Below are positions 1,214 to 52,431 of a stretch of 64,000 nucleotides of DNA, piece by piece. Each line of letters begins with the position of its first letter. Position 1 is the stretch's first letter. The position numbers and the translations under genes are program-made. Below the pieces are notes generated by a model. That model was given only the letters and a program-made list of their open reading frames with translations, was not told the origin of the DNA and did not search any database. Source of the stretch: a virus (Duplodnaviria > Caudoviricetes); IMG/VR virus record IMGVR_UViG_3300047160_008180, positions 769 to 64,768 of that record. One strand, 5' to 3'.

Positions 1214-3102
1214 CCACCAAGCGCAAAGCGCTGGCTGCTCCAGACATCCAGTTCAACGACCCGCAACTGGACCGGCTCATGCAGTTCGTGCGCGATCAGG
1301 CGCGCGAGATCCAGGCCCTGCAGCAGATGCTGCGCGCCGGTACTCAGGGGCAGATCCTCATCAAGGACAGCCCGACGGACTACGATGCCGCATGGACGGA
1401 CACCACGCACGGCACCATCACGGGCGCTGAGAACGTTGGCGCTGGTGATGGGGTATACCAGTCCACGGTCGGCACCACGCTGGCCTTCAAGTCGCTCATC
1501 CAGGGCGCGAACATCGAGCTCACGGTAGGGCCGGAGTCGATCACCGTCTCCGCAATCGTCCCCAGCGGCGGTACCGGTACGGTCACCTCGGTCGGTATCA
1601 ACAGCGCTGACCTCTCGGTCGTCGGCTCACCTATCGAGACCTCCGGCAGCATCACGCTCGAGATCAATCCGAACGCGGTCACCTACGACAAGATTCAGCA
1701 GACGAGCACCGATGGGGTGGTCCTGGGTCGCGCCGTCGGCGATGGCCCGGGCGATGTCGAGGAGCTCAACGCGTCGCAACTGGCCACCCTCATAGGCCCG
1801 GGCAACCAGGGACCGGCGGGCCCGGCGATCTTCCTGCAAGGGGAGGACGGCGAGGATGCGCCGATGATTCCCGGCCCACCAGGTCCCCAGGGCGTTCCGG
1901 GCGCTTCCGGTACCGGCGGCGATGGCAGCACCATCCTGGTGTTCGCCGACGACCCTGACGACCCGGTGGTGATTCCTGGACCGGCGGGCCCACAAGGGGC
2001 GACTGGACCCGCTGGCAGCGGTGGCAGTGGCAGCAGTCCCATGCTGGTGTTCGTGGAGGACAGCGACGACCCGATGATGATTCCGGGACCGCAAGGGGCC
2101 CCTGGTCCAACGGGTGCACTTGGTCCCGGTACGACCCTCCTGATGTTCTCGGACGATGGAGAGGATCCGGCGCTCATTCCAGGCCCGCAGGGACCGCAGG
2201 GGGCTACAGGTGCCACGGGGGCGACAGGCGCAACAGGCGCCGGTATCACCGTCCTACTGCTCGCGGATGATGGCGAGGATCCAATGATTGTCCCGGGTCC
2301 CCAGGGGCCGCAGGGAGCCACGGGAGCATCCGGGAGCAGCGGAAGCGGTGGCAGTCCCGTCGTCTTCTTCCCTGACGACGGAGAGGACGCACCGGTCATC
2401 CCGGGTACGCCCACGGACACGAGCACTGCGGGCCTTCCTGGAACGATCAGGGACCTAGTGTACTGGCTGAGGGCTGACCCGATCGTGGGCACCAACGGAC
2501 AGAACATTCCGACGGTCGGCAGTTCGGTGCCCTGGATACTTGGCCCCCTCGCCACCCTGGTCAACGGTACGGTTACGGTCGGCGCTGCCCAACTCAATGG
2601 CAAGAACGTCCTCAAGTGGCCGGGGGCAGCGACCGGCCGCTACCTACTGAGCAACCCGACACTCTTCTCCCAGCAGGTCACGGTGTTTTGTGTCGTCAAC
2701 CCAGCGGCGACCACGAACCAGACGCTTGTCGGTGCGGCGAATTCAGGGCTCGAGGTCGACGTAAACAGCGGCGCGAGCGGCTTTTCACTTACCAAGTCCC
2801 AAATTGGCGTCATCGCCTCGAGCTCCACGGCGCTGACGGTCTCGACCTGGGTTCAGGGAAATGTCACCTGGAACGCCAGTACCGGTGCCTATGCTTTCAG
2901 GGTGGCGAGGGCTGCTGCCGGTAGTGGCACCAGCACGCTCACCACGATCACGGGCAACACCAACGCGATTGGATTTAACCAGGCCGTCGGCGGCAACGAT
3001 ATGAGCTCGTCCGTGGCGGAGCTCATCATGTACAACCGCATCCTGACCGCGACCGAGATCGGGATCATCGAGAACTACCTTTTCAACAAATGGGCCGTAT
3101 AG
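1210..3102 (+). CDS. Collagen-like tail fibre or spike with C-terminal LamG/ConA-like domain
   Basis: Gly-X-Y runs (GPQGA). C-terminal LVYWLRAD...AELIMYNRILTATEIGIIENYLFNKW is typical of LamG-like phage domains. Confidence 0.75.
   Translation: MTTKRKALAAPDIQFNDPQLDRLMQFVRDQAREIQALQQMLRAGTQGQILIKDSPTDYDAAWTDTTHGTITGAENVGAGDGVYQSTVGTTLAFKSLIQGANIELTVGPESITVSAIVPSGGTGTVTSVGINSADLSVVGSPIETSGSITLEINPNAVTYDKIQQTSTDGVVLGRAVGDGPGDVEELNASQLATLIGPGNQGPAGPAIFLQGEDGEDAPMIPGPPGPQGVPGASGTGGDGSTILVFADDPDDPVVIPGPAGPQGATGPAGSGGSGSSPMLVFVEDSDDPMMIPGPQGAPGPTGALGPGTTLLMFSDDGEDPALIPGPQGPQGATGATGATGATGAGITVLLLADDGEDPMIVPGPQGPQGATGASGSSGSGGSPVVFFPDDGEDAPVIPGTPTDTSTAGLPGTIRDLVYWLRADPIVGTNGQNIPTVGSSVPWILGPLATLVNGTVTVGAAQLNGKNVLKWPGAATGRYLLSNPTLFSQQVTVFCVVNPAATTNQTLVGAANSGLEVDVNSGASGFSLTKSQIGVIASSSTALTVSTWVQGNVTWNASTGAYAFRVARAAAGSGTSTLTTITGNTNAIGFNQAVGGNDMSSSVAELIMYNRILTATEIGIIENYLFNKWAV
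1825..2410 (+). repeat. Six interrupted collagen-like repeat units of about 35 aa
   Basis: Recurring hydrophobic-DD(G/P)(E/D)D(P/A)xxIPGPxGPQGA unit. Confidence 0.85.
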
Positions 3103-3111
3103 GAGCCAATC

Positions 3112-3483
3112 ATGTCGCAGCAGAAACTCGCCAACATCCAGCCGATTGCCGTACCGAGTACGGCCACCAACCTCCTGAACTGCGCAATCACCTCGGTCGC
3201 TGGCCCGGTGGGCATGACCGCGACGCAGCCATACCTCACGCTCCTGCACCTGCGCGTCACGAACAACGACAGCTCTCCGCACACCCTGAAACTGTTCAAG
3301 GGGGCTACAGGTGCCAGCGCGGTGGGGACCGAGTTCGCCTACTCCGGCGAGACGATCGCGGCGAACTCGCACTCCGACTGGTACGGGAAGGCCCGGTTCG
3401 ACTCGACCGACTTCCTGACCGGTCTCGCCGACGTGGCGAACAAGCTCACCCTCACCATCGAGGCTGAGATCAACTTCTCGTAA
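3112..3483 (+). CDS. Small virion-associated protein (putative)
   Basis: 123-aa ORF with GGAG RBS in the tail module. Confidence 0.55.
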   Translation: MSQQKLANIQPIAVPSTATNLLNCAITSVAGPVGMTATQPYLTLLHLRVTNNDSSPHTLKLFKGATGASAVGTEFAYSGETIAANSHSDWYGKARFDSTDFLTGLADVANKLTLTIEAEINFS

Positions 3484-6194: not shown

Positions 6195-7828
6195 CCGTGA
6201 GCACGCCTGCCGATCAGTTGCCCATGCAGCAACCGCCCCAGAGTCCCTTGGACCAGTACATGGCCCAGTACGGGCAGCAACTGCAGTCCATGCTGGCCAA
6301 CGACCCCAACCAGGGCGCGGCGCCGGCAAACGACCCGGCAATGGCCGCTGCAGGGCAGGTTTCCGATCTCGGACCCGACACGTACCGGCCGCAGTTGCCA
6401 CAGGTACCCCAGCAGAGCGCGCTGGCCGCCGGTCAGGGTCAGGGACCGGGCAGCGCCACACCACCTGGTCAATCCCCCGCCGGGCCGCCGCAGAGCGCGC
6501 TCGCTGGGCCGCAGGACGGTGCTGGCGCCGACGGCTCGACAGGAGACGGAAAGGGCCAAGGGCTCTCGTTCCGCGACCTCTTCAAGGGTCAGCCGAAGGA
6601 TGTCCGGGACAGGTACGTGCAGCAGCTCCAGGACCACCTGAAGCAGGCTGACCAGACCATCAACTCCGCCTACGCCGACATGATGGAGAAGATGGGCGGC
6701 CGCCCGGACAAGAGTCTGAGCAAGGAGCAGAAGGGCATGCTGCTGATGGAATTCGGCATGCGGATGATGGAGCACTCCCGCGGGCAGTATGGGCAGACCA
6801 ACGAGCTCGGTGGCGCCATCGGGCAGGCCGGCACCGAGACGCTGCAGAGCGCCAAGGGCATGATGGCGGCGAACACCGCGAGCCAGCAGCGGTACGACCA
6901 GATGCAGGAGCAACTGGCCATTGCGCAGGGGAAGGAGCGAGCGCAATTGGCCTCGAGGTCAGCGCTCGAGACGGGTCGGGACCTGCGCGCCTTTGGCCAG
7001 CAGGACTCCCTGCTCGCCCGCACCCAGATGCAGCAGACCGGCGCGAGCGAGCGCACCGCGGCGAGGAACGAGGCCGCCGCCGACCGTACGGCAACGACGG
7101 AAGCGGGTAAGGACCGCCGTGCAGCGCAATCTGCCGGGCAGGTGAAGCGCACCGTGACCGGCGACGACGGCTCGATCTACGGCGTGACTGGCAATGGGTC
7201 CTTGGTCCGACTAGGCAAGGACGGCAAGGCGATCAAGGCCAACCCTGCCGGCGGCCCGGGCGGTGGCAAGCTCACCGCGGCGCAGGCGAACTACAACCTG
7301 TACATGTCCACCTATGGGAAGGATCAGAACGGGCAGCCGCTGACCGGTCAGGACCTGCAGGCGGCGCAGGGTGAGGCGCTGAAGTACGCCGCCAACCCGC
7401 GTACGTACCAGCTCTCGGATGCGCAGGCGCAGCAGATGGCCGCGAAGTCTGCCGATTCGTTCGTTCGCGCGAACCCCACCGCCTGGATGGGCATGTCGAC
7501 GGATGAGGTGGCCGCAAAGCGCGCCGAGTATGCCGAGTCGGAATACAACCGCATCCGCCGCGGAGCTCCTGCGATCGCGCAACCCCCACCGGGACCGCGG
7601 TCGGCGCTCGAGTCCAGCGGCGCCACCCGGCCGGTTCCGGCTCAATCCGGAAATTCGCCAGCGCCCAAGGCTGCCATTCCCACCTCACCGCCGCCGAACA
7701 TGCCTCGAGGCCCGAACGCGGCACAATTGGACGCCTTGCAGAAGGATCCCAAGCGCATGGCGCCGTTCTTCCTGCAGAAGTTCGGCTACCTGCCGCGTGA
7801 GTTCCACCAGTTCGCGCAAACCCCCTGA
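6191..7828 (+). CDS. Internal virion / DNA ejection protein (middle)
   Basis: 545-aa Ala/Gln-rich ORF between the small and giant ejection genes, with a GTGA overlap. Confidence 0.6.
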   Translation: MTVSTPADQLPMQQPPQSPLDQYMAQYGQQLQSMLANDPNQGAAPANDPAMAAAGQVSDLGPDTYRPQLPQVPQQSALAAGQGQGPGSATPPGQSPAGPPQSALAGPQDGAGADGSTGDGKGQGLSFRDLFKGQPKDVRDRYVQQLQDHLKQADQTINSAYADMMEKMGGRPDKSLSKEQKGMLLMEFGMRMMEHSRGQYGQTNELGGAIGQAGTETLQSAKGMMAANTASQQRYDQMQEQLAIAQGKERAQLASRSALETGRDLRAFGQQDSLLARTQMQQTGASERTAARNEAAADRTATTEAGKDRRAAQSAGQVKRTVTGDDGSIYGVTGNGSLVRLGKDGKAIKANPAGGPGGGKLTAAQANYNLYMSTYGKDQNGQPLTGQDLQAAQGEALKYAANPRTYQLSDAQAQQMAAKSADSFVRANPTAWMGMSTDEVAAKRAEYAESEYNRIRRGAPAIAQPPPGPRSALESSGATRPVPAQSGNSPAPKAAIPTSPPPNMPRGPNAAQLDALQKDPKRMAPFFLQKFGYLPREFHQFAQTP

Positions 7829-7843
7829 GCCACTGAAGCATGT

Positions 7844-10800
7844 ATGGCCGACGTAAACCCGCTCGACGCGCTCGACGAGGCACCTAGCGCCGCCCCGGCG
7901 TCCGCACTGGCAACGGCCGCTGCGCCGTCGTCTAACCCCCTGGATGCGCTGGACGACCCGTCGGCGCAGCCCAACCCCCTTGACCGATTGGGAACCCCTC
8001 CTGCGAGCGACCACACGGCCACACGCATGGACGAGGTCACCGACCAGGCACAGATGCCCACGGTCACGGTCTCCGCCAGAGGCGGCCCGGACTCGTCCTG
8101 GAGCGACGTGGCGCGCGGGATCCCGACCGCTATCGGCGCCGGCATCGAAACCAAGGTAGGCGCCACGCAGGAATACGTCGGTCACTCCGCCTACGACGAC
8201 GCTAAGAAGAAGTTTTGGCAGTCCGTGACCCTGCCGCAGGCCGTCCGAGACGCGAAGGCTCAAGGGGTGGCCCTGACCGACCTCCCCGAGGTCCAGGACG
8301 CCGCCAAGCACGTAGGCGTTCGCGTGGACGTGTTTACGCGGGACTGGCCGGACTACGTGAACATGTCGCCGCAGGAGCTCGACCAGGTGCAGCGCGAGCA
8401 GCGCGACCGGATGCAGGCCGGGGCGCAGCAGATCGAGAGCGGCTCGAGGAAGCGGCTCACTGCGGCCCAGGTCCAGGAGGCCTACGCGCCTCGCATGGAC
8501 AACCACTCATTGAAGGCGCTCGTTTTCGACTCGGCGACCATGGCCCCCGACATTTTGGCCGGCGTTGGCGGCACGGTCGCGACCGGAGGCGTGGGTGGCG
8601 CTGCCATCATGGCCGCCGACATCGCGCCGAATGAGTACGCCGCAGCCCGTAACAAGGGGCTCAACCACCAGGACGCGAGCACGTACGCAATTTTGACGAC
8701 TGTGGCGTCTAGTGTCCCAGAGGTCCCCGTTCTGAAGGTGGTCGAGAACACTCCCCTGGCGAATAAGGTCATCGGGAGCGTGGTAGGCGAGAAGCTCGCC
8801 CAGACCGGAGTCGGCAAGGTCGCTGGTACCGCGGCCGCCCAGGGCGTGACCCAGAGCGTCGTAAACGCTCTGCAGCAGGGTATCGACGCCGGAGTGCTCA
8901 ATGAGCACCTGCCGCTCGATGAGGCGCTCAAACAAGTAGCTTGGTCAGGGTTGCTGGGCGCGACGGTGGGAGCGCCTATGGGCGCCTACCACGCGGCGAC
9001 ATCAAGGTCTCGAAAGCCGACCACGTTGCAGGAGATCACCGAGACAGGCGGCGGCAATGGCCGCGAGGAACCACAGGCGCCATCCGTGGCGCCTCCTTCC
9101 GTGGGCGAAGTTCCTACCCCTATAGACACTCGGGGAGAGGAGATTCGGACGGGCGCAGCAGAAAATATTTCTGGCAGTGCGGAGGCTGAACAGCGCGCCG
9201 CCCTCTTGGCCGTACAGGACAAGACCGTTACCCCTCCGCAGGCGGACCTGCTCGAGCAGGCAGGACTGGTCAAGCGCAACGACCTGAACGAGCCGGTGCT
9301 GCTGCCTGCCGGCCGCCGTCGGCTTACCGAGCTGAAGGACACCGGCGACCTACCAGAAGGACAGGCTGAAAATGCCGCTGGAAAGGTATCTGCGGAGTCC
9401 GAACCACCCGTTAGCGGCACAAACACTGCGTCGAAACCCCTGGAAACACGGGAGAAGGGGCCGATTGTTGGTACGGAAACGCCGCAAGAAACCCCAAAAC
9501 AGCCCGAAACAGAGGCAAAACAGCCCGAAAAATCGGTAAACGAGGAGGTGGCGACGGAAAAAGCGCCTCTTTTGGACCGGTTGCGCGACGACCAAGACCT
9601 GCGACAGGGCCTCGAGGCGATGAAAGGGGAGACGGGCTGGGCCCAGGTGGGCGGCAAGGTGCTGCGCGACGCCACCACCGACCAGGTCACCGGGCGCACG
9701 TCCTGGATCCCGAACTCGGACTGGTGGCCGGGCCGTCCCAAGGGGCTCAAGGAGGACGAGGTCCACACCGCCGTCGACAAGGCGCTGGCCGGGCAGCCGC
9801 TGCGGAAGCGCGAGCAGTCCATGGTCGAGTACATGACGCAGGTGCACGATGAGCGCGTGGCCATGGCTGCCACCCACGAGGAACTCAAGCAGGCAGTCCC
9901 CGACCTCGAGGAGCAGCCACAGCAAGCCGTTGACCTCACCATCTTGGCCAGTCGCGCCGCCGAGCATGACCCGAACGCTACGGCGCAACTCATGGAGGAC
10001 GCTTGGGCCGATGACAGCCCGGAAACAATTGCTCGCGTTCGTGGCCAGTTCGAGCAGATAATCGGCCGTGGACAAAAAGAAGCCTTCACCCTCGCCACTC
10101 AAGAAGCAGGTAATCGAGAACCTGCGCCGGTTAAAAGATCACCGGCAGCGCTCGACCTCTTCGGCGAAGATCGCACCCGCGAGCAAGCACTAGCCGACGA
10201 GACCCGTCGGCGCGATCAACTCCGTTCGCCTAACCGCGATGTCCCCCTCGAGACCGGGCTACCTGGCGATCTCTTCAGCCAGTCCAGGCGACAGGTCGAC
10301 CTGACCGACCAGCTCGAGGCGGCTCGAGCAGACACCAACACGGATCCCACGGAAGCGCAGAAGGCCGCCGGCAACTACGCCAAGGGTGAGCTGTCCTTCG
10401 GTGGGATGAAGGTCACGCTGGAGAACCCGAAAGGGTCCACGCGCTCTGGCGTCGACCCTGGTGGCAAACGCTGGTCACGCAAGCTGGCGCACGACTACGG
10501 CTACCTCAACGGCAGTGAAGGCGCCGACGGCGATCACGTCGACACCTTCCTGACCGGCAAGCCTGACACCGGCAAGGTGTTCGTCGTGAACCAGGTGCAC
10601 CCGGACACCCGGGAATTCGATGAGCACAAGGCCGTGCTGGGAGCTAACTCCGAGGAGGAGGCGCGGCGCACCTACCTAGCCAATTACCCTCGCGGCTGGA
10701 AGGGCCTCAACAGCGTTGCAGAGTTCAGCACCGATGGGTTCCGTCGGTGGTTGAACCGTGGGCAGCGCCGTCGGCCGGCGTGGGGTAGTGAGGTCGAACG

Positions 10801-13800
10801 GGAGAATCAACTGGATGCGGCCGCGCACGAATTCGACGCGCAGACGCACGAGGAGATCGGATCGGAGCCGATGAGCTCCCAGGAAATTGCGGAAGGATTC
10901 GAGCACTGGGCGAAGCAGAGCGCCATTGATCCCCGGGCGCTCGCTGGCAAGGTGGCCGAGAGGCTGCGCACGTCCGAGAACCCCGCGGTTCGAGGCGCCG
11001 CCGACCTCATCGCCCAAAAGCATGAGCGCCGCGTCGAGATCGCGCGCCGCAAGAAAGTCGCGGAGATGAGCGCGGAGGAGGCAAAGCGCGAGCTCCTCAC
11101 GCATGAACTCACTGGCATACCTAACCGTCGAGCGTACGTCGAATCAGAAAAGCTTCCGCGACAGGTGTCTATTGATGTCGATTCGCTGAAAGCCATCAAC
11201 GACATCGCCGGCCACGAGGCGGGGGACGCACTGCTCAAGGAGGTGGCCCAAGTCCTCCACGAGGAAACCGATCATGCCTACCATCTGTCTGGGGACGAAT
11301 TTGCCGCTCAAGCGTTACACGATCGTGAGGCGCACGAGCTCATGGAGCGCGTTCGTGACCGCCTGAAGGATTCAGAGATTATTGTTCAGATGCCGGACGG
11401 TTCGATGGCCAACTATAAGGGACTCGGTATATCGTACGGTGTAGGAGAGGATCTTGGTAAAGCGGATGCAGCCCTCCAATCCCACAAACAAGAACGAGAA
11501 GCGCAAGGTCTCCGAGCGCCCCGCGGCGAAACCCCAAGAGGGCTCGCTATTAGACGCCCTGAAGGCGGGGGGCAAAGTGATCGGAGTGAGGCACGCTCCG
11601 AAAAAACGTCAATAAGCGGAACCGAGACGGCGCGCGATCGTACTGCGGCCGCAACCGAGCTTTTTGGCGATCGCGCGAATGCTGATGCCATCATTGATCA
11701 TGGCCTGAATTCGCTGGATATCGAGAGGCAGCGTGAGGTGGTGGCGCAGGTGCGCGCCAGCCTTCAGAACTTCAAGATTGCGCGGGCTGTTATCAAGTCC
11801 GTCCCCATTTCCGTGGTGCACATGCTCACCGGGAGCAAGGTCACGAGCGATGAGTTGGCGCGCGATCCAACGATGTTCTCCCATAGTCTGGCCGTAGCGA
11901 CGGACGGTTCGATACCTGGCAACGTGCGCGGATTTATCGACACGATAGCCAAAGCCGTGCGCGCTGTAGAACGCTCCGGAACACCGGCGATTGCAGAAGA
12001 AGCGGCTCGCCCGAAGTCGCGCAGGACTTCGGTAGAGGGACGCGCCACAGTTGCTGCAGGAGACTATCTGCATGGCAAAACTGTAGGCCTACCTCGCGCC
12101 AGTGTCGAGCGCATCGTTCACCAGACGGTACGAGAAGCGAACCTCGTCGCCGGTTTTCCGCACGTCGAGGTGCACGACGACGTGTCCAGTCTTCCACAGC
12201 CCATCAAGCGCCTCATTGAAGAGCAGGGCGCGCAAAGCCTGACAGGCGCCGTCTACGACCCGAATACGGGCCGCATCCACCTGGTCGCCAGCAACAACGC
12301 CACAGAGGCTGAGGTCCGCGAGAATCTCTGGCACGAAGCGGTCGGGCACCATGGACTCCGAATGGTGATGGAGGGGCCGCAGTACAACGTGGTGATGGAT
12401 GGTATCGCGCGGGATATGCCCGAACGAGTGCAGGCTGCCGCCATCCGCAGCGGTTTGGACGTACGCGACCCAGCCCAGAAACGCGCCGCGGCCGAAGAGG
12501 TCATTGCTTACGCCGCCGGCCAACATCTCTCCGGCCAGCCGATCGATAAGCCCGTGGTGCCGTACTGGACTCGTGCGGTGCGCGCGGTGAAGGCGTTCTT
12601 TGCGCGCATGACAGGCAGGCCGTTCTACGATGACACGGCGATCGCCAAGCTCATCGGACAGGCCCGACAGGCTCTGGAGCGCGGCACGGCAGGCACACTC
12701 CTAGGGGAACCGGCCCGCGCCACGCGCGCCCCGATGTTCTACTCCCCTGTCGAACGTGCGGTAACCGAGTCGAAGCAGGGCAAGGCGTCTGCGGGCCAGT
12801 GGCTGGCAACCCTTCGCAAGACCACCGGGGTCAAATCTGACGAACTCGAATGGTTGAATCTTGAGCCCTGGCTGAAGGAGCACAAGGGACCGATTACGAA
12901 GGAGGAACTTGCGGATTACGTACGGGCCAACAAACTGCAGTTGGAGGAAACGCTACACGGTGCGGGCGCTCAGACAGCAGACGAGCGCGAGCAGATCAGG
13001 CTCGCTGAACTGCTACGGGCGGAAGGTCACACCGTCGCCTTCGATAACGATGGCAACCTCGACTTCATCAGCGTGCCGCGCCAGGAAGAGGGCTACACGG
13101 TTCCGACGTATGACACCTATTCCCTCCGGGACCCTGCACAGATCGAAGAACTACCCGAGTCGATACGGGAGCGCGTCCGGGATCTGGATGATGTCTCGAC
13201 CCACGTGGCTGCCCGGTGGGCCGCTGAGCATGAAGATCCCACCGCCTCCGAAGACCGCGGCGCGAAGTACGGTGAGTACACACTGCCAGGAGGGAAGAAC
13301 TACCGCGAGATGCTCGTTCGCATGGGGAATCACTACGATCCTGCACAACTCGCTCATCGCAAGACTGCCTTTGAGAAATATGCGAGCGGCATAGAGCGTT
13401 ACCGCCAGCAAAGCGAGGATTTTTCACTACCGCTAGATGAGCGTCAGAGGGCGCAACGTAACCTGATGAAGCTGCAGGATATCCGCGACGCCGAAGCTGA
13501 CAAGCTTGGGCCGGAACGCCCCACTTATCGCTCCAGTCACTGGGATGAGCCGAACATTTTGGCGCACGTCCGCTTCAACGAGCGCACGGACCCAGACGGC
13601 AAGAAAGTCCTTTTCCTGGAGGAACTGCAGAGCGACTGGCACCAGCAAGGGCGCCAGCACGGATATCCAGGGAGCCCTGAAGAAATAGAAGCGGCTAAGC
13701 AAAAACGCGACGCAGCCGGGCTACTGCACTCCGAGGCCGGCGAACGTGCAGCGGAGACATTCCGCGCGGAGTACGCAGGATCCCCAGAGGAAGCGGTTGC

Positions 13801-16800
13801 CATCCGCCGACGGCTCCCAGAAACACAAAAAGCGCTCACTGAAGCCCAACGTGCCTATGACCAGGCGAAGGGCGCTGTGCCGCACGCACCGTTCAAGACC
13901 TCCTGGCCCATGCTGATCATGAAGCGCATGGTGCGCTGGGCGGCGGAGAACGGATTCGAGCGAATCGCGTGGACAACGGGGAAGCAAAACGCCGAGCGGT
14001 ATAGCCTTGAAAACCGCGTCGGCGAGATCACTTACCAGCGCCGCGGCAACCTGTACAACGTCGCTGTTGACTCGCCAGAAGGCGTAAGAATCTGGAGTAG
14101 CCAACACTCCGATAAAGAGACGCTAGCGCGATACGTCGGCCAAGAGATGGCCGATAAGATCGAGCGCGGTGAACGCACAGAGACAAATGGCCCGTTTAAT
14201 GTCATCAGCGGACTGGATCTAAGGACTGGCGGTGAAGGGATGCGCGGCTTCTACGACCAGATCCTGCCGCGCGAGACTGACAAACTGATCAAGAAGTACG
14301 GCGCCAAGACCGGCCCGGTCGAGGTATCCGTGGGCGGTGGCCCTTCGGCGAATATGCAGGACGATATCGCCACAGGATTTAGACCGGCATCCGCAACGGC
14401 ACACGGCTTCGATATTACTCCGGCGATGAAGACGGCCGCGCTCGGCGAGGGCTTCCCGATGTTCTCGCGGCGGCAGCAGGAATTGCCGCTGGAGGAACAG
14501 CGCGAGCGCGGCGCCTACGCCGTGATCCGGCGGGCCGTCAACGCGGTGCACGACTCTGCTGTAGCGCGCGACTTCCGCAAGCTGGCGAATCCGGTCGGGA
14601 TGTCCCCGGAATCCAAACAGACTGCGCTCGTCGCCCGGGCAGCCCTGGGACAGCTCGCGCACGAGACGGTCGAGACCCAAGAAGCGCTTGAGCACTTCTC
14701 GCGTCAGGTCGACCGGATGCCGGTCAAAGACCAGTTGCAGATGATGGACGAGATCGAGCGCGGCGTGCCGCAATCCATCCCTGAGTACCAACCCGTAGCC
14801 GATGAGATGCGCAAGATCTTGGATACCTGGCGCGGCAAGGTGCAGGGGCTGGGGGCCGGATACCTCGATAACTTCATCGAGAACTACTTCCCGCACTACT
14901 GGCGCTTCCCGGACGAGGCGCAGCGCATGGTCGCATCCATCATGGGCCGGCGGCCGCTTCGAGGGCCCGCGTCTTTCCTCAAGATGCGCACCATCCCGAG
15001 CATCAAGGAGGGTATGGACGCAGGCCTTACGCCGCTCACCACGAACCCGCTCATCATGACGCTGCTCAAAACGCGCGAGATGCAGCGGTTCGTGACCGGT
15101 GTAACGCTGATGAAGCGATTCAAGGAGGACGGGCTGGCGCAGTTTCTGCGGGCTGGATCCCCCATGCCGGACGGCTGGGCGCCGATCAACGACAACATCG
15201 CCAAGGTGCGACAGTGGTCGGAGGTGGAGAATGGATTCATCGAGCGTGGGCAGTACATCATGCCGCTTGAGGCGGCTCGTGTGATCAATAACCACGTGTC
15301 TGCGTCCGCGCTGCGAGACTTCGCGCCCGCACAGATTTTCAGGCGCGGCGCCAACGCCCTGAACGCCATGCAGTTGGGCTTCTCGGCCTTCCACCTGGGG
15401 TTCACAACCCTCGACGCGATGATCTCGAAGAACGCCCAAGGCATCGAGCGGCTCATGCACGGCGAGGTCGGCAAGGCGGCTCAGTCCTTCGGCGAGGGGC
15501 TGACACCGGTGGGAGCGTTCACGAACGTCCGCCGCGGATATCGCTTGCTCCAGGCCTACTCGGATCCGGCCGGCGCGACGCCTGAGATGCAGAAACTGGT
15601 GCGGATGCTCGAGCAGGCCGGCGGCCGGGCGCACATGGACCGCTACTACCAGGCGGCGGAGGGGTTCAGCCCGTTCCGCGGCGCAGGGTTGCGCTCACTG
15701 AGCAATGACGTGCGGCAGGCGCTCACAGCACCTACCGACAAACTGCAGAACCTGGGGCGGGCCCTCGGTAGCTTCCCGGTCGAGTACGGCAACAAACTCA
15801 TGCGCGGCATGCAGGAAATCTGGGCCACCACGCCCAAAATGGAGGTGCCCGTGGAGGTGGCCATGCGGATCGTCCGCGCGTCCACGTCCTGGATCATGGA
15901 ACACCTGGTGCCGATGCAGAAACTGGGAGTCTTCTCGGACCTCGCCACCGACCACCTGCGCCGCAACCCACTCGAGAACCCGAACGAGCGCGCGGCCGCC
16001 ATGCAGAAAATCTGGGACTCGGTCGACAACCGTCTCGGCGAGATGGTCTATGACAACCTGTTCTGGAACCGGACCATGAAGGACTCGCTGCACCTGGGCA
16101 TCCGCGCCGTCGGCTGGAACGTGGGTACCGTGCGCGAGATCGGAGGAGCTCCGATCGACATCGCTCGTGCGGTCGATAAGCTCATCCGCACCGGCAAGAT
16201 CACAGCTCAGGACCTCGGCCACCGGATCCCTTACGTGCTGGCCATGGCGACCACCACCGCGCTGTACGGCGCGATGTACCAGTACATGGCCACCGGGCAG
16301 GGGCCGCAGGAGCTCAAGGACTACTTTTTCCCGCGTAGCGGCGGCGTCACGAACTACGGCACGCCCCAGCGGGTGTCGCTGCCGTCCTACGTGAAGGATG
16401 TCTACGAGTACGCCCACCGGCCCGGTACCACGGTGGTGAACAAGCTGAACCCCATCTTCAGCCTCATGGGCAACCTGTACTCGAACCAGGACTTTTTCGG
16501 CAACCCGATCACGGACCCTGAAGCGGGGTACTGGCAGCAGAAACTGCAGCAGTTGCAGTTCGCCGGCCATGAAATGACGCCGTTCTCGTTCCAGGGACGC
16601 CAGCAGATGGAAGCCACCGAGCAGCCCACCGGGTTTGGCGCGGCCGTCAAGAAGGTGCTGCCGATGGTGGGGGTGACACCCGCCCCGGGGTATATCACCT
16701 CGGGCGAGCAGATGGAGCGCCGCCAGCGCCTCGAGGCCGATCAAAAGTACGTGGGCGAGCTGAAGTACAAGATTAAGAAGGCGGCCCTGGCAGGGGATAA

Positions 16801-17035
16801 GGAAGGTGCGGCGGAGATCACGAAGGAGTATATCGAAGCTCGCAAGCGCATGGCGCAGACCAAGGCCCTTGTGGACCAGGACCGCGCCAAGGCGGCCGCA
16901 GCGCGGCGCAAGACCGCTACCTCGATGCGTCAGCAGGGTATGCCGCGGACTGCCGACCTGGTCGCAGCGCTACCTCTTGAACCGGATTCGGCTGCGCGCA
17001 AGTACTTCTCGCAAATGGCCCAGGGTATCGCGTAG
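7844..17035 (+). CDS. Giant polyvalent ejection protein (3063 aa): InPase-like, GGDEF, zincin-like and other domains
   Basis: GNYAKG...ENPKGSTRSG...HDYGY...DGDHVD (InPase-like); SGDEF domain; LWHEAVGHHGL; FYSPVE...GVKSDEL and EELQSDWHQ motifs. Confidence 0.85.
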   Translation: MADVNPLDALDEAPSAAPASALATAAAPSSNPLDALDDPSAQPNPLDRLGTPPASDHTATRMDEVTDQAQMPTVTVSARGGPDSSWSDVARGIPTAIGAGIETKVGATQEYVGHSAYDDAKKKFWQSVTLPQAVRDAKAQGVALTDLPEVQDAAKHVGVRVDVFTRDWPDYVNMSPQELDQVQREQRDRMQAGAQQIESGSRKRLTAAQVQEAYAPRMDNHSLKALVFDSATMAPDILAGVGGTVATGGVGGAAIMAADIAPNEYAAARNKGLNHQDASTYAILTTVASSVPEVPVLKVVENTPLANKVIGSVVGEKLAQTGVGKVAGTAAAQGVTQSVVNALQQGIDAGVLNEHLPLDEALKQVAWSGLLGATVGAPMGAYHAATSRSRKPTTLQEITETGGGNGREEPQAPSVAPPSVGEVPTPIDTRGEEIRTGAAENISGSAEAEQRAALLAVQDKTVTPPQADLLEQAGLVKRNDLNEPVLLPAGRRRLTELKDTGDLPEGQAENAAGKVSAESEPPVSGTNTASKPLETREKGPIVGTETPQETPKQPETEAKQPEKSVNEEVATEKAPLLDRLRDDQDLRQGLEAMKGETGWAQVGGKVLRDATTDQVTGRTSWIPNSDWWPGRPKGLKEDEVHTAVDKALAGQPLRKREQSMVEYMTQVHDERVAMAATHEELKQAVPDLEEQPQQAVDLTILASRAAEHDPNATAQLMEDAWADDSPETIARVRGQFEQIIGRGQKEAFTLATQEAGNREPAPVKRSPAALDLFGEDRTREQALADETRRRDQLRSPNRDVPLETGLPGDLFSQSRRQVDLTDQLEAARADTNTDPTEAQKAAGNYAKGELSFGGMKVTLENPKGSTRSGVDPGGKRWSRKLAHDYGYLNGSEGADGDHVDTFLTGKPDTGKVFVVNQVHPDTREFDEHKAVLGANSEEEARRTYLANYPRGWKGLNSVAEFSTDGFRRWLNRGQRRRPAWGSEVERENQLDAAAHEFDAQTHEEIGSEPMSSQEIAEGFEHWAKQSAIDPRALAGKVAERLRTSENPAVRGAADLIAQKHERRVEIARRKKVAEMSAEEAKRELLTHELTGIPNRRAYVESEKLPRQVSIDVDSLKAINDIAGHEAGDALLKEVAQVLHEETDHAYHLSGDEFAAQALHDREAHELMERVRDRLKDSEIIVQMPDGSMANYKGLGISYGVGEDLGKADAALQSHKQEREAQGLRAPRGETPRGLAIRRPEGGGQSDRSEARSEKTSISGTETARDRTAAATELFGDRANADAIIDHGLNSLDIERQREVVAQVRASLQNFKIARAVIKSVPISVVHMLTGSKVTSDELARDPTMFSHSLAVATDGSIPGNVRGFIDTIAKAVRAVERSGTPAIAEEAARPKSRRTSVEGRATVAAGDYLHGKTVGLPRASVERIVHQTVREANLVAGFPHVEVHDDVSSLPQPIKRLIEEQGAQSLTGAVYDPNTGRIHLVASNNATEAEVRENLWHEAVGHHGLRMVMEGPQYNVVMDGIARDMPERVQAAAIRSGLDVRDPAQKRAAAEEVIAYAAGQHLSGQPIDKPVVPYWTRAVRAVKAFFARMTGRPFYDDTAIAKLIGQARQALERGTAGTLLGEPARATRAPMFYSPVERAVTESKQGKASAGQWLATLRKTTGVKSDELEWLNLEPWLKEHKGPITKEELADYVRANKLQLEETLHGAGAQTADEREQIRLAELLRAEGHTVAFDNDGNLDFISVPRQEEGYTVPTYDTYSLRDPAQIEELPESIRERVRDLDDVSTHVAARWAAEHEDPTASEDRGAKYGEYTLPGGKNYREMLVRMGNHYDPAQLAHRKTAFEKYASGIERYRQQSEDFSLPLDERQRAQRNLMKLQDIRDAEADKLGPERPTYRSSHWDEPNILAHVRFNERTDPDGKKVLFLEELQSDWHQQGRQHGYPGSPEEIEAAKQKRDAAGLLHSEAGERAAETFRAEYAGSPEEAVAIRRRLPETQKALTEAQRAYDQAKGAVPHAPFKTSWPMLIMKRMVRWAAENGFERIAWTTGKQNAERYSLENRVGEITYQRRGNLYNVAVDSPEGVRIWSSQHSDKETLARYVGQEMADKIERGERTETNGPFNVISGLDLRTGGEGMRGFYDQILPRETDKLIKKYGAKTGPVEVSVGGGPSANMQDDIATGFRPASATAHGFDITPAMKTAALGEGFPMFSRRQQELPLEEQRERGAYAVIRRAVNAVHDSAVARDFRKLANPVGMSPESKQTALVARAALGQLAHETVETQEALEHFSRQVDRMPVKDQLQMMDEIERGVPQSIPEYQPVADEMRKILDTWRGKVQGLGAGYLDNFIENYFPHYWRFPDEAQRMVASIMGRRPLRGPASFLKMRTIPSIKEGMDAGLTPLTTNPLIMTLLKTREMQRFVTGVTLMKRFKEDGLAQFLRAGSPMPDGWAPINDNIAKVRQWSEVENGFIERGQYIMPLEAARVINNHVSASALRDFAPAQIFRRGANALNAMQLGFSAFHLGFTTLDAMISKNAQGIERLMHGEVGKAAQSFGEGLTPVGAFTNVRRGYRLLQAYSDPAGATPEMQKLVRMLEQAGGRAHMDRYYQAAEGFSPFRGAGLRSLSNDVRQALTAPTDKLQNLGRALGSFPVEYGNKLMRGMQEIWATTPKMEVPVEVAMRIVRASTSWIMEHLVPMQKLGVFSDLATDHLRRNPLENPNERAAAMQKIWDSVDNRLGEMVYDNLFWNRTMKDSLHLGIRAVGWNVGTVREIGGAPIDIARAVDKLIRTGKITAQDLGHRIPYVLAMATTTALYGAMYQYMATGQGPQELKDYFFPRSGGVTNYGTPQRVSLPSYVKDVYEYAHRPGTTVVNKLNPIFSLMGNLYSNQDFFGNPITDPEAGYWQQKLQQLQFAGHEMTPFSFQGRQQMEATEQPTGFGAAVKKVLPMVGVTPAPGYITSGEQMERRQRLEADQKYVGELKYKIKKAALAGDKEGAAEITKEYIEARKRMAQTKALVDQDRAKAAAARRKTATSMRQQGMPRTADLVAALPLEPDSAARKYFSQMAQGIA
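11099..11500 (+). other. GGDEF (diguanylate cyclase-type) domain within the giant protein
   Basis: LTGIPNRRAY, SIDVDSLKAINDIAGHEAGDALL, YHLSGDEF, ISYGVG, ADAAL. Confidence 0.85.
11609..12073 (-). mobile_element. HNH homing endonuclease nested antisense within the giant gene
   Basis: CSNC...CNRRC zinc knuckle, EHRWIARQ...EHVHHGNGDGLDNSPRNLEVL...H HNH core, C-terminal HTH (SIRAIAKKLGCGRSTIARRL). Confidence 0.85.
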
Positions 17036-26421: not shown

Positions 26422-27150
26422 TCAGCCTCGCAATTCGATCTGCTGTTGAGCGGCCTTCACTTCCCACGGATCCATGTCATTGATCCGCACCGGGTCTAGT
26501 ATCCAGCGCAGCATGCCCAGCGGCACTTCGCTGTAGAGCGTTCCAGGCTTGCCGTTCTTCGGCCCGTACTTGCTGAAACCGATACGCAGCGGGATCCGGG
26601 CCTGCTCGGACACCTCCCACAACCTCTCCCATGAGGTGACGCGGGCGAGTGGGTCAGAAACGCTGATTTCGTGGAGCAAGCTGTCAAGCACGAAATTGGT
26701 GAGATGGATGTCCTGGGCCGCGTTGTGAGCGGTGGCGACCATCTCGCGCGCCTCCTTGGGATTGACCAGGTGGTAGATCAGCGCGCTGAGCTTGTACGAG
26801 TCCAGGTCAGGCCAATACCGCTTGGCCAGCGCCATGGTGCAGATTCGCTTCACCGACGGGGAGCCTATGGAGGCCCAGTCGAAGTCGATCTGGTGACCGA
26901 TTAGGTAGTGCACCCCGAGGGGCAGCGCGTAGGAACCAGGCCACTCCGGGAAGGTTTTGAGGTCTTCCATGATGATGCCGTGGGTGGCCATGGCACCGAT
27001 CGAGATGGGCTTACGCGGTTTGAAAAATAGAACGGTCGCTTCATCCCTGGGGAGCTCACCAAAGACTATCGGAGCTGTGTGTGCCAGTTGAACGACATCT
27101 GGCGCATCGAGGCCTGTGCCTTCGGTGTCCAGGATCATAGCCATGACCAT
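26422..27150 (-). CDS. DEDDh 3'-5' exonuclease (ExoX-like)
   Basis: ILDTEGTG, GHQIDFD, AHNAAQD, FSKYG tail. Start re-set to ATG 27150 after GAGGAG. Confidence 0.88.
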   Translation of the reverse strand: MVMAMILDTEGTGLDAPDVVQLAHTAPIVFGELPRDEATVLFFKPRKPISIGAMATHGIIMEDLKTFPEWPGSYALPLGVHYLIGHQIDFDWASIGSPSVKRICTMALAKRYWPDLDSYKLSALIYHLVNPKEAREMVATAHNAAQDIHLTNFVLDSLLHEISVSDPLARVTSWERLWEVSEQARIPLRIGFSKYGPKNGKPGTLYSEVPLGMLRWILDPVRINDMDPWEVKAAQQQIELRG

Positions 27151-27554
27151 GACTTTCTCCTCTTGATAGCAGAAATAGCGCCGAGCGAGACATTGAACTG
27201 TGCAGCCAGAGCGCGTTGGCTCTCGCCCGAAGCGCGGATTGCAAGTACTTTTTCTACCGTCAGCCGCGACCACGGCGCCGATTCACCGCGCACTACGCGC
27301 TTGCGTCCCTTGCGGATCATGTCGGCTGTGTTGTCCTGGTGCGTGCCGAGGAACAAATGCTGTTCCTCAACGCATGGGCGATTGTCGCAACTGTGGCAGA
27401 CCAGTTTATTGAGCGGGATTCTCCCGTGGACCTGCTCCCACATCACACGGTGTGCGAGTCGCCGCTGGCCTTCGACCTGCACATATGCATACTTTCCGAG
27501 GCGAACGCCGCGGACCTCGAGACAGCCGATAGATTGACCGGGCCTGAGGGGCAT
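27135..27554 (-). mobile_element. Free-standing HNH endonuclease with C-terminal HTH
   Basis: AHRVMWEQVHG...VCHSCDNRPCVEEQHLFLGTHQDNTADMIRKGR, SQRALAAQFNVS. Start uncertain (27554 or 27635). Confidence 0.88.
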
Positions 27555-27673
27555 TCGCACGGCATTGCTCAGGAGCCGTAAATGCACAGGAGCGCGACAT
27601 GACCGAGGAGAGGGCAGAACCGAAGGTTGCGACACGTGGACCTCGTGCTATGGGTTTCATCTACGCTACCCGT

Positions 27674-42755: not shown

Positions 42756-45443
42756 ATGCAGGCTCACGAGCTCACCCCTTATCAGCGGGCGGAGCGCCAT
42801 TACACAGCGGTCACGGCTGAGACCTGCCGGCGCTCCCTGCGCAAATTCGTTAAGCGCGTCTGGTCGCTGATCGATCCCAAACCGTATGTAGAAGCTTGGC
42901 ACATCGATGCCATCGCCGACCATTTGGCCTATGTCGCCATCGGCGACATCATGAACCTGATGATCAACGTCCCGCCGCGCATGACAAAGAGCAGCGTGGT
43001 GTCGGTGGCCTTCCCGGCGTGGATGTGGACAGATCAGCCAGACCTGCAGTTCCTAGCCGCCAGCTACCAGAAGGACCTCGCCGAAGGCGATGCCATAAAG
43101 CACCGCCGCATAGTTGAGTCTGCCTGGTACCAAGCCCGGTACCCCGACGTAATCCTCCTGACCGACCAGAACCGGGTCGATGACTTCCGCAACACCAAAG
43201 GTGGGTATCGCCAGACGATCTCGGTAGGTGGTGTGACCACCGGCAAGGGTGGCGACATCCAGCTCTTTGATGACCCGCACAACGCGTTCACCGTTGAGTC
43301 GGACGCGGTGCGCAAGTCGACCATCAACTGGCATGACAATTCCTGGCGATCGCGCGTCAACGATCCCAACACAGCCCGCCGCGTGTACGTGGGCCAGCGC
43401 ACGCACGACGGCGACGTGTTCGGCCACGTGCTGGCCAAGGAGGAGAAACGTTGGGTACACCTCAACCTGCAGATGGAATTCGACGGCTCGAGGCGCTGCA
43501 TCACCTACCGCAACAAGGGTGAGGGTCCGATAGGGGAACCGATCTTCAAGGATCCGCGCACCCAGCCGAATAGCCTTCTGTGTCCCGCGCGCTTCAATGA
43601 GCAAACCGCGCAGCGCGAGAAGGAGGCCGTCAGTGAACGGACCTGGAATGCGCAGTACCAGCAGCAGCCCGAGGGCAAGGGCGGCGTGATCCTGAAGCGG
43701 AAGTGGTGGCGTAACTGGACTTGGCCGGAATGGCATCCCGAGTTCCGCAAGACCGAGCGACCGCTGCCTGAGATGCTGCAGGTGATTCAGGCCTACGACA
43801 CGGCGTTTGAGGAGAGCGAGCAGGACAGCTTCACGGTGCGCACGACCTGGGGCCTGTTCGAGCACTCCGACGTAGTACGCATGTCCAACGGCTCTACGCG
43901 GACCCTTCCGCCGCGGATGAACGCCATGCTCCTTGAGCGCCGCAAATGGCGTCCCAGCTTCGGCGAGCTCCGGGACGATGCCGTGGAGTCGGCCAAGCAG
44001 TTCAGTCCGGACCGCATCCTGGTGGAGAAAAAAAGTTCGGGACACTCTCTCGTGCAAGAGCTCCGTCGTAAAGACCTTCCGGTGCGAGCGGTCAAGATTC
44101 AAGGAGATCTGATCTACCGTGCGCACTTAGCTGCGCTGCCTCTTGAGAAGGGATCTATCTGGTACATCAGCCGAAATTGGTCCAAAGACCTGATAGAGGA
44201 ACTCGCGAAATTCCCGAATGTTGATTTTAATGATCAGGTAGCGAGTTGCTTTGCTGCTGGCACAAAAGTGATTTGCCTGGACGGTGTTCGCGAAATTCAG
44301 GAGATCCGACCCGGCGACCTGGTGCTAACCCACAAAGGGCGTTTTCGGCAGGTAGAGGCGGTCCGTGCCAAACAGGCGGATCACGTCTACAGATTAAAGG
44401 CGATGACATTAGATGAGGTGCAGGTAACCGGGGAGCATCTGGCGTGGAGCAGCGAGATATCGCCGTTGCGCAAGGGGCGGCCTGAGCGGTGGCGACGCGT
44501 GGACCAACTGCGCCCAATCAAGCGATATCGCAGCCGCCGAGGAAAGGCTGAGGTCGCTAGGACGGTCGTGGACGGCCTGACATTACCGTCGGCGAGCCCA
44601 GTACGTTTGCGTTCTATCGATACGAAGTCGTGGAGCGTCGGCCGGGGAGGTCGCGCGAACGGATTCCCGCGCGTGATCCGACTAACCTACGATTTCGGTT
44701 GGGTCCTTGGTTTTTGGATTGCGGAAGGCTCAATGAGCCGAACATCCGCAGTATTTTCGCAGCGCTTCGACAAATGGCAACTGCCAGCGCTGCGTCGCAG
44801 ACTCATGAAGTTGTTCGGAAAGATATGGAGTGAAAGCCGTACCAGAAATATTGTCAATGTGACACTTGGGGTCGCGAGTATCCTTCCGCTTTTCGAAATG
44901 ATGGGACGCGGGTGTACGAATAAAAAGATTCCTGATATTGCGTGGGGAGCACCTGCCGGTTTTCGTCGCGGACTCGTCGATGGGATTGTAGCTGGCGATG
45001 GACACGAGAATGAGGTGGACATCACTGTCAGCACCACTTCCTCTACCCTCGCTTATCAACTGAGACTTCTTTTGGCCAGCCTAGGGCAGCCTTGCACAAT
45101 TGGACGCCCCAAGCGACATCTGCGCAACACCGCATGGCAACCTATCTATGCGGTGCGGTGGTACAAAAATCCAGCGCGTCAGGCAGCAATTAAACGGCCG
45201 GAATCATGGGTCTATCCTGTGGAGAAGGCGCAGCGCGTCGACGGAGAGATTACTGTCTACGATATTCAGGTCGAGGAAGACCGCAGCTTTGTGACTACGG
45301 GAGGCACATTCCACAATTGCGTTATTGCCTGGATGTACATGAGGCGCTTCATGGACCTGCAGATTGAGGACGATGAGGACACCGAGGAACTCGAGCTCTT
45401 TAACCCTGCCATCATGAGGCCCACCATTGGTTACTACGGGTAG
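42756..45443 (+). CDS. terL: Terminase large subunit with intein
   Basis: INVPPRMTKS Walker A, LFDDPH Walker B, QAYDTAF and VEKKSSG nuclease motifs. Confidence 0.95.
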   Translation: MQAHELTPYQRAERHYTAVTAETCRRSLRKFVKRVWSLIDPKPYVEAWHIDAIADHLAYVAIGDIMNLMINVPPRMTKSSVVSVAFPAWMWTDQPDLQFLAASYQKDLAEGDAIKHRRIVESAWYQARYPDVILLTDQNRVDDFRNTKGGYRQTISVGGVTTGKGGDIQLFDDPHNAFTVESDAVRKSTINWHDNSWRSRVNDPNTARRVYVGQRTHDGDVFGHVLAKEEKRWVHLNLQMEFDGSRRCITYRNKGEGPIGEPIFKDPRTQPNSLLCPARFNEQTAQREKEAVSERTWNAQYQQQPEGKGGVILKRKWWRNWTWPEWHPEFRKTERPLPEMLQVIQAYDTAFEESEQDSFTVRTTWGLFEHSDVVRMSNGSTRTLPPRMNAMLLERRKWRPSFGELRDDAVESAKQFSPDRILVEKKSSGHSLVQELRRKDLPVRAVKIQGDLIYRAHLAALPLEKGSIWYISRNWSKDLIEELAKFPNVDFNDQVASCFAAGTKVICLDGVREIQEIRPGDLVLTHKGRFRQVEAVRAKQADHVYRLKAMTLDEVQVTGEHLAWSSEISPLRKGRPERWRRVDQLRPIKRYRSRRGKAEVARTVVDGLTLPSASPVRLRSIDTKSWSVGRGGRANGFPRVIRLTYDFGWVLGFWIAEGSMSRTSAVFSQRFDKWQLPALRRRLMKLFGKIWSESRTRNIVNVTLGVASILPLFEMMGRGCTNKKIPDIAWGAPAGFRRGLVDGIVAGDGHENEVDITVSTTSSTLAYQLRLLLASLGQPCTIGRPKRHLRNTAWQPIYAVRWYKNPARQAAIKRPESWVYPVEKAQRVDGEITVYDIQVEEDRSFVTTGGTFHNCVIAWMYMRRFMDLQIEDDEDTEELELFNPAIMRPTIGYYG
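44247..45317 (+). mobile_element. Intein (357 aa) with LAGLIDADG homing endonuclease
   Basis: CFAAGTKV N-terminus, GDLVLTH, LGFWIAEGS and LVDGIVAGDG, VYDIQVEEDRSF...HN followed by Cys(+1). Confidence 0.95.
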
Positions 45444-49158: not shown

Positions 49159-49395
49159 ATGCTTCTGCGCGCCCTCACAGAGAAATATTCGCGCCCCCAC
49201 ATACGGCGCTTACGCATGTTGGCGGGTGACGCTGCATGGTACGAATGCCGAGATCACGAGGGCCATCGAGGCGCCGGTAAAACCGTCGACCGCGCTTACG
49301 ACTCATGGGTAGTCGACGTGCAATTCCATCGATGTGCGCTTGGATTCTTCCCAGCCCCACTGCGACACCCGTCCACTATCTGGGCCGCTAAGTAG
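49159..49395 (+). CDS. Hypothetical protein
   Basis: 78 aa. Confidence 0.4.
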   Translation: MLLRALTEKYSRPHIRRLRMLAGDAAWYECRDHEGHRGAGKTVDRAYDSWVVDVQFHRCALGFFPAPLRHPSTIWAAK

Positions 49396-49492
49396 CGCAT
49401 CCGCCCACCGCCGACATAGAATCCGCCGCACACGTGGTCCGTCCTGGTGACCCGCCACACAAAACACCAAGGTCATTGGACCGAGGACACGT

Positions 49493-52177: not shown

Positions 52178-52431
52178 CCAATCCGGCACGAGGAATGATT
52201 TTCGCAGCCGCCACACAAGCGGCGGCGGACTCGTTATGGACCGACCTTGAGGATAACGACAGGTACGTGGTTTACGCGGTCCATGTCTATCGCAATGGCA
52301 GGCCTGCGCCTTCGCCGGTGTGCTGGTTGGTGCTGCCGGAGAATATGCAACCGAGGGTGACCGAACTTCGGGGCGGTACCGGAGACGGCGATGTCAATCC
52401 ACTCGCGCCTGCGATCACGAGGATACCGTGA
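52174..52431 (+). CDS. Hypothetical protein
   Basis: GTGA-coupled. Confidence 0.45.
   Translation: MTNPARGMIFAAATQAAADSLWTDLEDNDRYVVYAVHVYRNGRPAPSPVCWLVLPENMQPRVTELRGGTGDGDVNPLAPAITRIP

Follow-up and report, generated by a model that had tools for sequence, protein, structure and literature searches.

In the genome of a tailed phage from soil metagenomes, a small and probably selfish DNA-cutting (HNH) gene lies intact and backwards within a giant virion-protein gene whose own reading frame stays open throughout. The DNA considered here, referred to below as the window, is a 64,000-nt stretch (positions 769 to 64,768 of IMG/VR record IMGVR_UViG_3300047160_008180; Duplodnaviria, Caudoviricetes) that covers most of a ~65 kb phage genome. 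Our reading, to which we give a probability of roughly 0.7, is that the gene and its immediate surrounds form a compact, splicing-free homing-endonuclease cassette, inverted and codon-aligned within the linker between a GGDEF domain and a HEXXXH motif of a polyvalent gene. A homing element of this kind had been proposed from the bare letters of the window (hereafter the original prediction), and the proposal now draws support from insertion-free alleles of the host gene, from purifying selection on the endonuclease frame and from the recurrence of the layout within one clade of HNH genes.

Two genes on opposite strands of one segment

The host gene (7844..17035, plus strand) is one unbroken open reading frame (ORF) of 3063 aa encoding a phage polyvalent (virion or ejected) protein, and the gene inside it (11609..12073, minus strand) encodes an intact endonuclease of 154 aa with zinc-knuckle, HNH and helix-turn-helix (HTH) parts, antisense to host codons 1256-1410. 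Both ORFs exist as the original prediction described them. The two sets of codons were also correctly said to be in register: the boundaries of the host and HNH codons coincide ((11609-7844) mod 3 = 0), such that the start codon ATG of the HNH gene lies opposite the host CAT for His1410, and its stop TGA opposite the host TCA for Ser1256.

From its N-terminus, the minus-strand protein comprises a zinc knuckle of the form CxxC...CxxxC (aa 6-31; 11981..12058, minus), an HNH catalytic core (aa 54-112; 11738..11914, minus) and a C-terminal HTH (aa 110-148; 11630..11746, minus; Pfam HTH_38 at E 3e-9 and HTH_7 at E 4e-7). Residues C6, C9, C27 and C31 of the knuckle and H86, H87, N95, N99, H108 and H112 of the core are invariant among 22 family members. 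The catalytic His...Asn...His motif is present (HVHHGNGDGLDNSPRNLEVLKAGAHLRHH), the core reads HVHHGNGDGLDN..NL..AH, and PHROG HNH families match the protein down to E 1e-12. An AlphaFold2 (AF2) model of the protein has a mean predicted local distance difference test score (pLDDT) of 86.5, and its best structural match by VIA-align is I-HmuI (1u3e_M; 64 residues, model positions 50-114, root-mean-square deviation 2.4 Å, with a moderate Z of 6.7), followed by I-PpoI, GVE2 HNH and Gme HNH. The HTH part of the model resembles resolvase, Tc3 and repressor HTH structures, and the zinc knuckle has weak structural and sequence matches to the L24e, MYND, FCS and YacG zinc fingers. Foldseek against the PDB gave nothing significant with this model, I-HmuI ranking second at E 0.3, because the model is multi-domain; a PDB profile search with the HNH alignment returned HTH and zinc-finger pieces only and no HNH entry.

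Among PHROG families, the host protein matches giant virion, DarB-like and internal-head proteins, and its gene is placed after a DNA-ejection-protein gene, with ejection-protein and tail genes as neighbours. An InPase domain (aa 837-971; 10352..10756, plus; Pfam PF18823, E 1e-49) precedes the GGDEF domain (aa 1108-1219; 11165..11500, plus; Pfam PF00990, E 3e-12), which stands directly upstream of the insertion linker, and downstream of the insertion lies a HEAVGH (HEXXXH) motif (residue 1497; 12332..12349, plus), a putative metallopeptidase (MPTase, zincin) variant. Among the 77 giant homologues found, further modules include RadC, ART-PolyVal and LPD. The protein is thus giant and multi-domain, carries unrelated effector modules and is encoded among virion genes, and it is a phage-type polyvalent protein sensu Iyer et al. 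2017 (PMC5512222). According to that paper, HEXXXH marks a variant type of metallopeptidase found in polyvalent proteins. Downstream of the insert, Pfam gives nothing at E up to 1 and no peptidase domain, so that the 'zincin' label comes from the HEXXXH motif; of the two domains said to flank the linker, the GGDEF is confirmed, and the zincin stands as a motif without Pfam support.

Insertion-free alleles and the limits of the insert

Alignment with homologous giant proteins bore out the proposed inverted insertion into an inter-domain linker, since it gave two insertion-free alleles. In both (P0003, encoded at locus L002, and P0006) the GGDEF tail (...REAQGxRAPRGExPRG...) passes through a linker of ~30 aa directly to 'GLPRxxVERIVHQ', a presence/absence polymorphism at a homologous site with the empty allele intact. 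The segment without counterpart in the insertion-free allele spans 11549..12085, 537 nt against 96 nt in L002, and the net gain of 441 nt is exactly 147 codons. It is anchored by blastn on either side, with window 11441-11548 corresponding to L002 5868-5975 (81%) and window 12086-12205 to L002 6072-6190 (78%). The plus-strand translation of the HNH gene, here called the filler, is absent from this site in 11 further close homologues having both flanks, and the sporadic distribution of the HNH at this linker appears to be that of a mobile element.

In four other soil-metagenome runs, contigs across the region show 0 differences, one (11415-12033) spanning the left junction and another (12042-12370) the right; as the junctions are repeated in independent metagenomes, they are no product of misassembly. 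The joined (empty) form was not seen in the contigs of these four DNA runs, whose coverage is patchy. The string 'PKSRR', common to the empty-allele linker and the filler, was considered as a junction marker and rejected, being antisense to the conserved zinc knuckle. In another homologue of the host protein (P0005, residues ~1045-1165), the GGDEF-to-HEXXXH linker holds a different, sense-coded module of ~140 aa. Polyvalent proteins may gain modules preferentially at this linker.

Recurrence across giant phage genes

Searching 1.84 billion representative sequences with the plus-strand filler (phmmer) yielded 118 clusters, 25 of them at E below 1e-10, nearly all within proteins of 1000-5600 aa and at many different positions; across giant proteins with no relation to one another, the family occupies over 100 distinct positions. 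All five of the giant genes that were fetched (L001, L006-L009) hold an intact, codon-aligned antisense zinc-knuckle/HNH/HTH ORF with its ATG just before the knuckle, and among the loci inspected first, whether fetched for their filler proteins or found by HNH homology, 10/10 carry an intact antisense HNH.

Sampling from the HNH side covered relatives of at least 100 bits in metagenome and IMG/VR contigs, together with GTDB genomes; a first IMG/VR scan with a two-sequence alignment had given one locus, and richer alignments were needed. The closest HNH relatives sit in codon-aligned antisense open frames in 17 of 18 metagenome and IMG/VR cases and in four of four from GTDB, with antisense host frames of 415 to >3500 aa around them, and more distant HNH_3 relatives are free-standing. 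On a FastTree phylogeny of 141 HNH sequences, which is built on 123 columns and has limited resolution, 22 of the 24 embedded copies fall into one group (Shimodaira-Hasegawa-like support 94), and the embedded or free label changes five times against a shuffled mean of 21.

Among 5.8 billion predicted proteins, a word-based search limited to relatives of 84-270 aa returned none, neither free-standing nor called within a giant gene; the method is too insensitive for the result to count as evidence against free-standing forms. No cultured-phage example of the antisense layout was found by tblastn, and GTDB contains no cultured host for the core clade, the best matches being metagenome-assembled genomes (MAGs) and Kribbella qitaiheensis L174 having only a distant, partly overlapped HNH relative. 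The closest HNH relative outside a long antisense frame (L091 5818-7314, IMG/VR UViG_3300037506_000360) faces two minus-strand open stretches in the same frame, split by a single stop (6520-6522) beside the HNH start, and may be a broken or free-standing derivative. In a Dehalococcoidia MAG, four identical copies of a distant HNH relative (L194-L197) lie on one contig of the bacterial chromosome, each with an HNH-frame open stretch of 353 aa and an in-register antisense open frame of 309 aa; these look like a multi-copy element of another kind.

Codon avoidance and selection

In a codon-aligned antisense frame, host stops arise only opposite TTA and CTA (Leu) and TCA (Ser), all of which can be avoided synonymously, as is true of no other alternative frame, and the 154-aa HNH gene contains none of the three. 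The original prediction had reasoned that a plus-strand stop would need one of these codons, which is correct, and that their rarity at high GC accounted for the open frame; high GC does not suffice as the whole reason, because avoidance persists at 43-50% GC, where copies likewise have zero. Over 24 distinct embedded HNH genes the three codons occur 0 times, where the codon usage of the host genes predicts 0.4 to 11.5 per gene. The probability of finding none is 1e-6 in phages at 43% GC and 7e-6 at 50% GC (10-11 expected), and the summed log10 P for the 24 copies is -38.6. Avoidance on this scale across the family argues that ribosomes would have to pass through the host frame.

Conservation follows the minus strand. 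Across 22 sequences the HNH alignment (A3) has 19 invariant columns, every zinc and catalytic residue among them, and the filler alignment (A4) has one. The prediction had allowed that homologues might conserve the plus-strand peptide as a real domain: the peptide does recur, in 118 clusters, but its recurrence mirrors the HNH on the opposite strand. In 15/15 pairs, identity is higher in the HNH than in the filler. Among differing codon columns, the HNH residue is kept and the filler changed in 6487, against 2433 for the reverse (2.7:1 for the HNH) with about equal mutational opportunity (7495 vs 8027), the pairs being not independent and the alignment having been built on the HNH. Between the window and locus L006 alone, 38 columns keep the HNH residue and 14 the filler. 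This asymmetry was used instead of differences by codon position, which are near saturation at this divergence and weakly informative. The HNH frame is under purifying selection.

Absence of splicing or transposition devices

The original prediction saw no intron or intein signature, and profile searches agree. Scanning 9500-14500 against Rfam with a limit of E 10 found no intron, only two chance-level matches (H19_3 and a CRISPR repeat). Pfam at E up to 0.01 found no Hint or intein domain in the host protein and does detect a Hint and LAGLIDADG intein in the terminase of the same phage, an internal positive control; the translated segment 11549..12085 matches no Pfam family. Since only 60 + 12 nt of the insert (~72 nt, ~24 codons) lie outside the HNH ORF, no known intron core or set of Hint blocks would fit, and these flanks translate as linker-like sequence that aligns with the empty allele. 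The ends are also not those of an intein: the filler begins Ser-Ile and ends Leu-His followed by Gly (...DYLH, then GKTV), unlike the His-Asn then Cys/Ser/Thr of inteins. Neither the intein hallmarks (Hint blocks, an N-terminal Cys/Ser, a C-terminal His-Asn plus Cys/Ser/Thr) nor the ribozyme core that flanks the ORF in a group I or group II intron were found here. Terminal inverted repeats and target duplications are absent from the insert boundaries and the HNH is the sole ORF of the insert, which sets it apart from transposons and insertion sequences.

Signals for expression of the antisense gene

A promoter-like site precedes the HNH gene (12080..12108, minus; TCGACA, 17 nt, TACAGT, ending 6 nt before the ATG) and is the sole promoter-like match in 11300-12500. 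Its -35 box lies in host-homologous DNA and its -10 box at the edge of the insert. Hexamers resembling a -10 box occur 6-9 nt before the start codon in 9 of 22 family members against 4.4% of control positions (P 2e-7), and in several other members a Shine-Dalgarno sequence precedes the gene and a promoter lies farther upstream. Such promoter sites are consensus matches, which are no proof of function; the geometry of the putative HNH promoter would be of the leaderless mRNA type.

A proposed mechanism and its alternatives

In the mechanism that we propose, the cassette would consist of a promoter, a leaderless ATG and the 154-codon zinc-knuckle/HNH/HTH ORF, with the HNH transcribed from its own antisense promoter. 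As the HNH lacks TTA, CTA and TCA, the host ORF would stay open and the host protein would presumably carry ~150 extra residues of filler. Neither RNA nor protein splicing would be needed, because the host ORF is open and the filler falls in a tolerant inter-domain linker; the additional residues should be tolerated because polyvalent proteins are independent modules on long linkers, perhaps cut by their own metallopeptidases. In a cell also infected by a related phage, the HNH would nick or cut that phage's insertion-free allele, and recombinational repair would copy the cassette in (homing). Transcription, read-through translation, the activity and target of the nuclease, and homing are the parts of this scheme that we infer.

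Several observations weigh against it. The open host frame of this particular copy is compatible with chance (P ~0.16 to 0.20, from the codon usage of the window over 154 codons), and the filler search finds only cases in which the host frame is open, a bias from which only the samples drawn by HNH homology are free. The Pfam HNH_3 match (E 2e-5, 24.5 bits) falls just under the gathering score of 24.8. The insertion junctions cannot be placed exactly, because the linker is poorly conserved. No second allele with this HNH was found at the exact site, which makes recent homing there conjectural, and the closest relative is only 54% identical. Lastly, AF2 models the filler (the plus reading of 11612-12073) as a helical bundle with fair confidence (pLDDT 75.7, ~88 over residues 20-120; predicted template modelling score 0.64), and on the strength of this model the plus-strand peptide may be more than filler. 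Foldseek against the PDB gave only generic helical bundles for that model, at E above 0.5, and the predicted fold could be artefactual, through covariation carried over from the HNH strand, or could reflect a filler that has been shaped into a benign folded spacer.

A more ambitious version of the proposal would have the HNH clade specialised for an obligate antisense, codon-aligned life in giant virion genes, purged of TTA, CTA and TCA, expressed from leaderless promoters and with its filler shaped into a folded helical spacer. This would amount to dual-strand coding over ~150 codons with both products made, and we regard it as a tentative extension that is more doubtful than not.

Among outright alternatives, the one that survives best is that the HNH is a fossil or has been domesticated, having inserted once and no longer homing, with its ORF intact because it is young or has been repurposed for packaging or attack on host DNA. 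The failure to find a near-identical copy at this site in any other lineage and the modest identity of the closest relative would both fit, and HNH proteins do have non-homing phage roles (PMC11855218). Against this stand the catalytic and zinc residues that are invariant in 22 diverged copies, the selection that favours the HNH frame, and the spread over more than 100 positions in unrelated giant proteins while close homologues of the host lack the insert. We consider it unlikely.

It is also conceivable that the read-through product itself is unimportant, the frame being open only as a guard against polarity or premature termination, or the protein cutting itself at the linker with a metallopeptidase. 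Autoproteolytic processing of polyvalent proteins into units by MPTase domains has been proposed (PMC5512222), and the HEXXXH motif stands just downstream of the insert, but Pfam sees no peptidase domain there. This explanation would refine rather than contradict the homing-cassette reading, as ribosomes would still have to cross the antisense HNH; we judge it quite unlikely.

Hidden splicing or bypass, with the segment taken out by an intron that escaped recognition, a non-canonical intein or ribosomal hopping, is very improbable. Inteins with antisense homing endonuclease ORFs are known (Gorbalenya 1998, cited in bioRxiv 10.1101/2025.01.02.630785), and Rfam would miss novel ribozymes; however, no Rfam match even at E 10, no Hint domain, ends unlike those of inteins and the ~72 nt outside the HNH ORF all count against it, and removal at the RNA level would make the family-wide avoidance of antisense stops unnecessary. 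That the plus-strand peptide is a real, selected domain and the HNH ORF its incidental shadow is largely refuted: despite the 118 clusters and the well-scored helical model, the filler has no Pfam or PDB match, the minus strand matches HNH and HTH families built from free-standing proteins as well as the I-HmuI fold, the invariant columns and the 2.7:1 asymmetry favour the HNH, and each copy has its own start, stop and promoter-like or Shine-Dalgarno sequence.

Relation to known systems

The nearest described counterpart of the homing cassette is the ShiLan domain, a splicing-free insertion in mycobacteriophage DNA methylase genes that conceals an HNH read from the host strand in a different frame (Arsenault, Gosselin & Gogarten 2025, Genes 16:178; PMC11855218). 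The two share an HNH inside a phage gene, an open host frame, no intron or intein, a sporadic, homing-like distribution and, as proposed in that paper, leaderless translation. They are also homologous, with aa 4-116 of the window HNH showing 35.9% identity to the Bipolar, ShiLan and OwlsT2W loci (E 2e-9). In Mycobacterium phage Bipolar (L003; NC_028823.1 46390-48396) the HNH match is on the same strand, offset by 2 from CDS 1243-3249, and hence of the ShiLan type. Another homologue, in Cylindrospermopsis phage Cr-LKS3 (L004), likewise lies on the same strand inside an annotated DNA methylase gene. The HNH of the window, unlike that of the ShiLan domain, is on the opposite strand and codon-aligned, and instead of a methylase its host encodes a giant polyvalent virion protein. 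Antisense cases are not mentioned in the ShiLan paper (PMC11855218), nor antisense HNH inserts in the polyvalent-protein paper (PMC5512222).

Antisense endonuclease ORFs occur in inteins, in Synechocystis DnaX (Gorbalenya 1998) and in actinobacteriophage examples (bioRxiv 10.1101/2025.01.02.630785). They resemble the present case in having an endonuclease opposite an unbroken host ORF, with the sense reading a non-functional filler, and differ in having Hint blocks and LAGLIDADG or VSR-like nucleases, where here there is an HNH and no Hint. With I-HmuI of SPO1 and the Mob and Seg endonucleases of T4 (PMC2988022), the window HNH shares a beta-beta-alpha-metal HNH core joined to DNA-binding modules and the same presumed cleave-then-copy mechanism; theirs lie in self-splicing introns, between genes or splitting the host gene, whereas this one lies within a coding sequence, splicing-free and without breaking the frame. 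The long shadow ORFs of GC-rich genes obey the same rule that antisense stops require a sense TTA, CTA or TCA, but in the present case each strand carries a real gene, and the three codons are still avoided at 43-50% GC, where composition offers no explanation. The literature searched held no paper on codon-aligned antisense HNH genes in giant phage genes.

Other homing genes and features of the phage

The window also contains terminase, tail fibre, DNA-ejection protein, RecT and helicase genes, and its only DNA similarity to a cultured phage is a 200-nt match to the 'internal head protein' of Xanthomonas phage Rb1. The terminase large subunit ORF (42756-45443, plus; 895 aa) contains a canonical intein, with Hint_2 and Hom_end_hint (aa 498-553) and, farther on, LAGLIDADG_3 (aa 738-794), and at 44-46 kb the GC content falls to ~0.55. 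A second HNH (27135..27635, minus), of the HNH_3 type, is free-standing, lies in no host ORF and shares its strand with the neighbouring genes; it has five TTA/CTA/TCA codons and a likely true start at the ATG of codon 28. The original prediction had taken the open, in-register antisense frame of this second gene as support for the mechanism; the frame is there and is open for ~140 codons, but composition predicts it and the support falls away. One phage thus hosts three homing-endonuclease lifestyles, intein, free-standing and antisense-embedded. Elsewhere in the window, two mutually antisense open frames (49388-52216, minus, 942 aa; 49493-52177, plus, 894 aa) have no Pfam or PHROG match.

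Implications

Homing endonuclease genes have been thought to survive in essential genes only inside self-splicing introns or inteins. The arrangement described here would add a third route, in which the gene inserts backwards, host stops are synonymously avoidable and the reverse translation is carried as linker filler. This mode of life for a mobile gene within another gene looks widespread and, in the literature searched, undescribed. Embedded HNH nucleases of this kind are invisible to gene callers, and antisense shadows may account for many of the 'domains of unknown function' of giant phage proteins. The family offers a natural system for the study of long dual-strand coding and bears on how modules are shuffled in polyvalent anti-defence proteins, and it would supply a pool of HNH nickases or cutters, probably site-specific ones.

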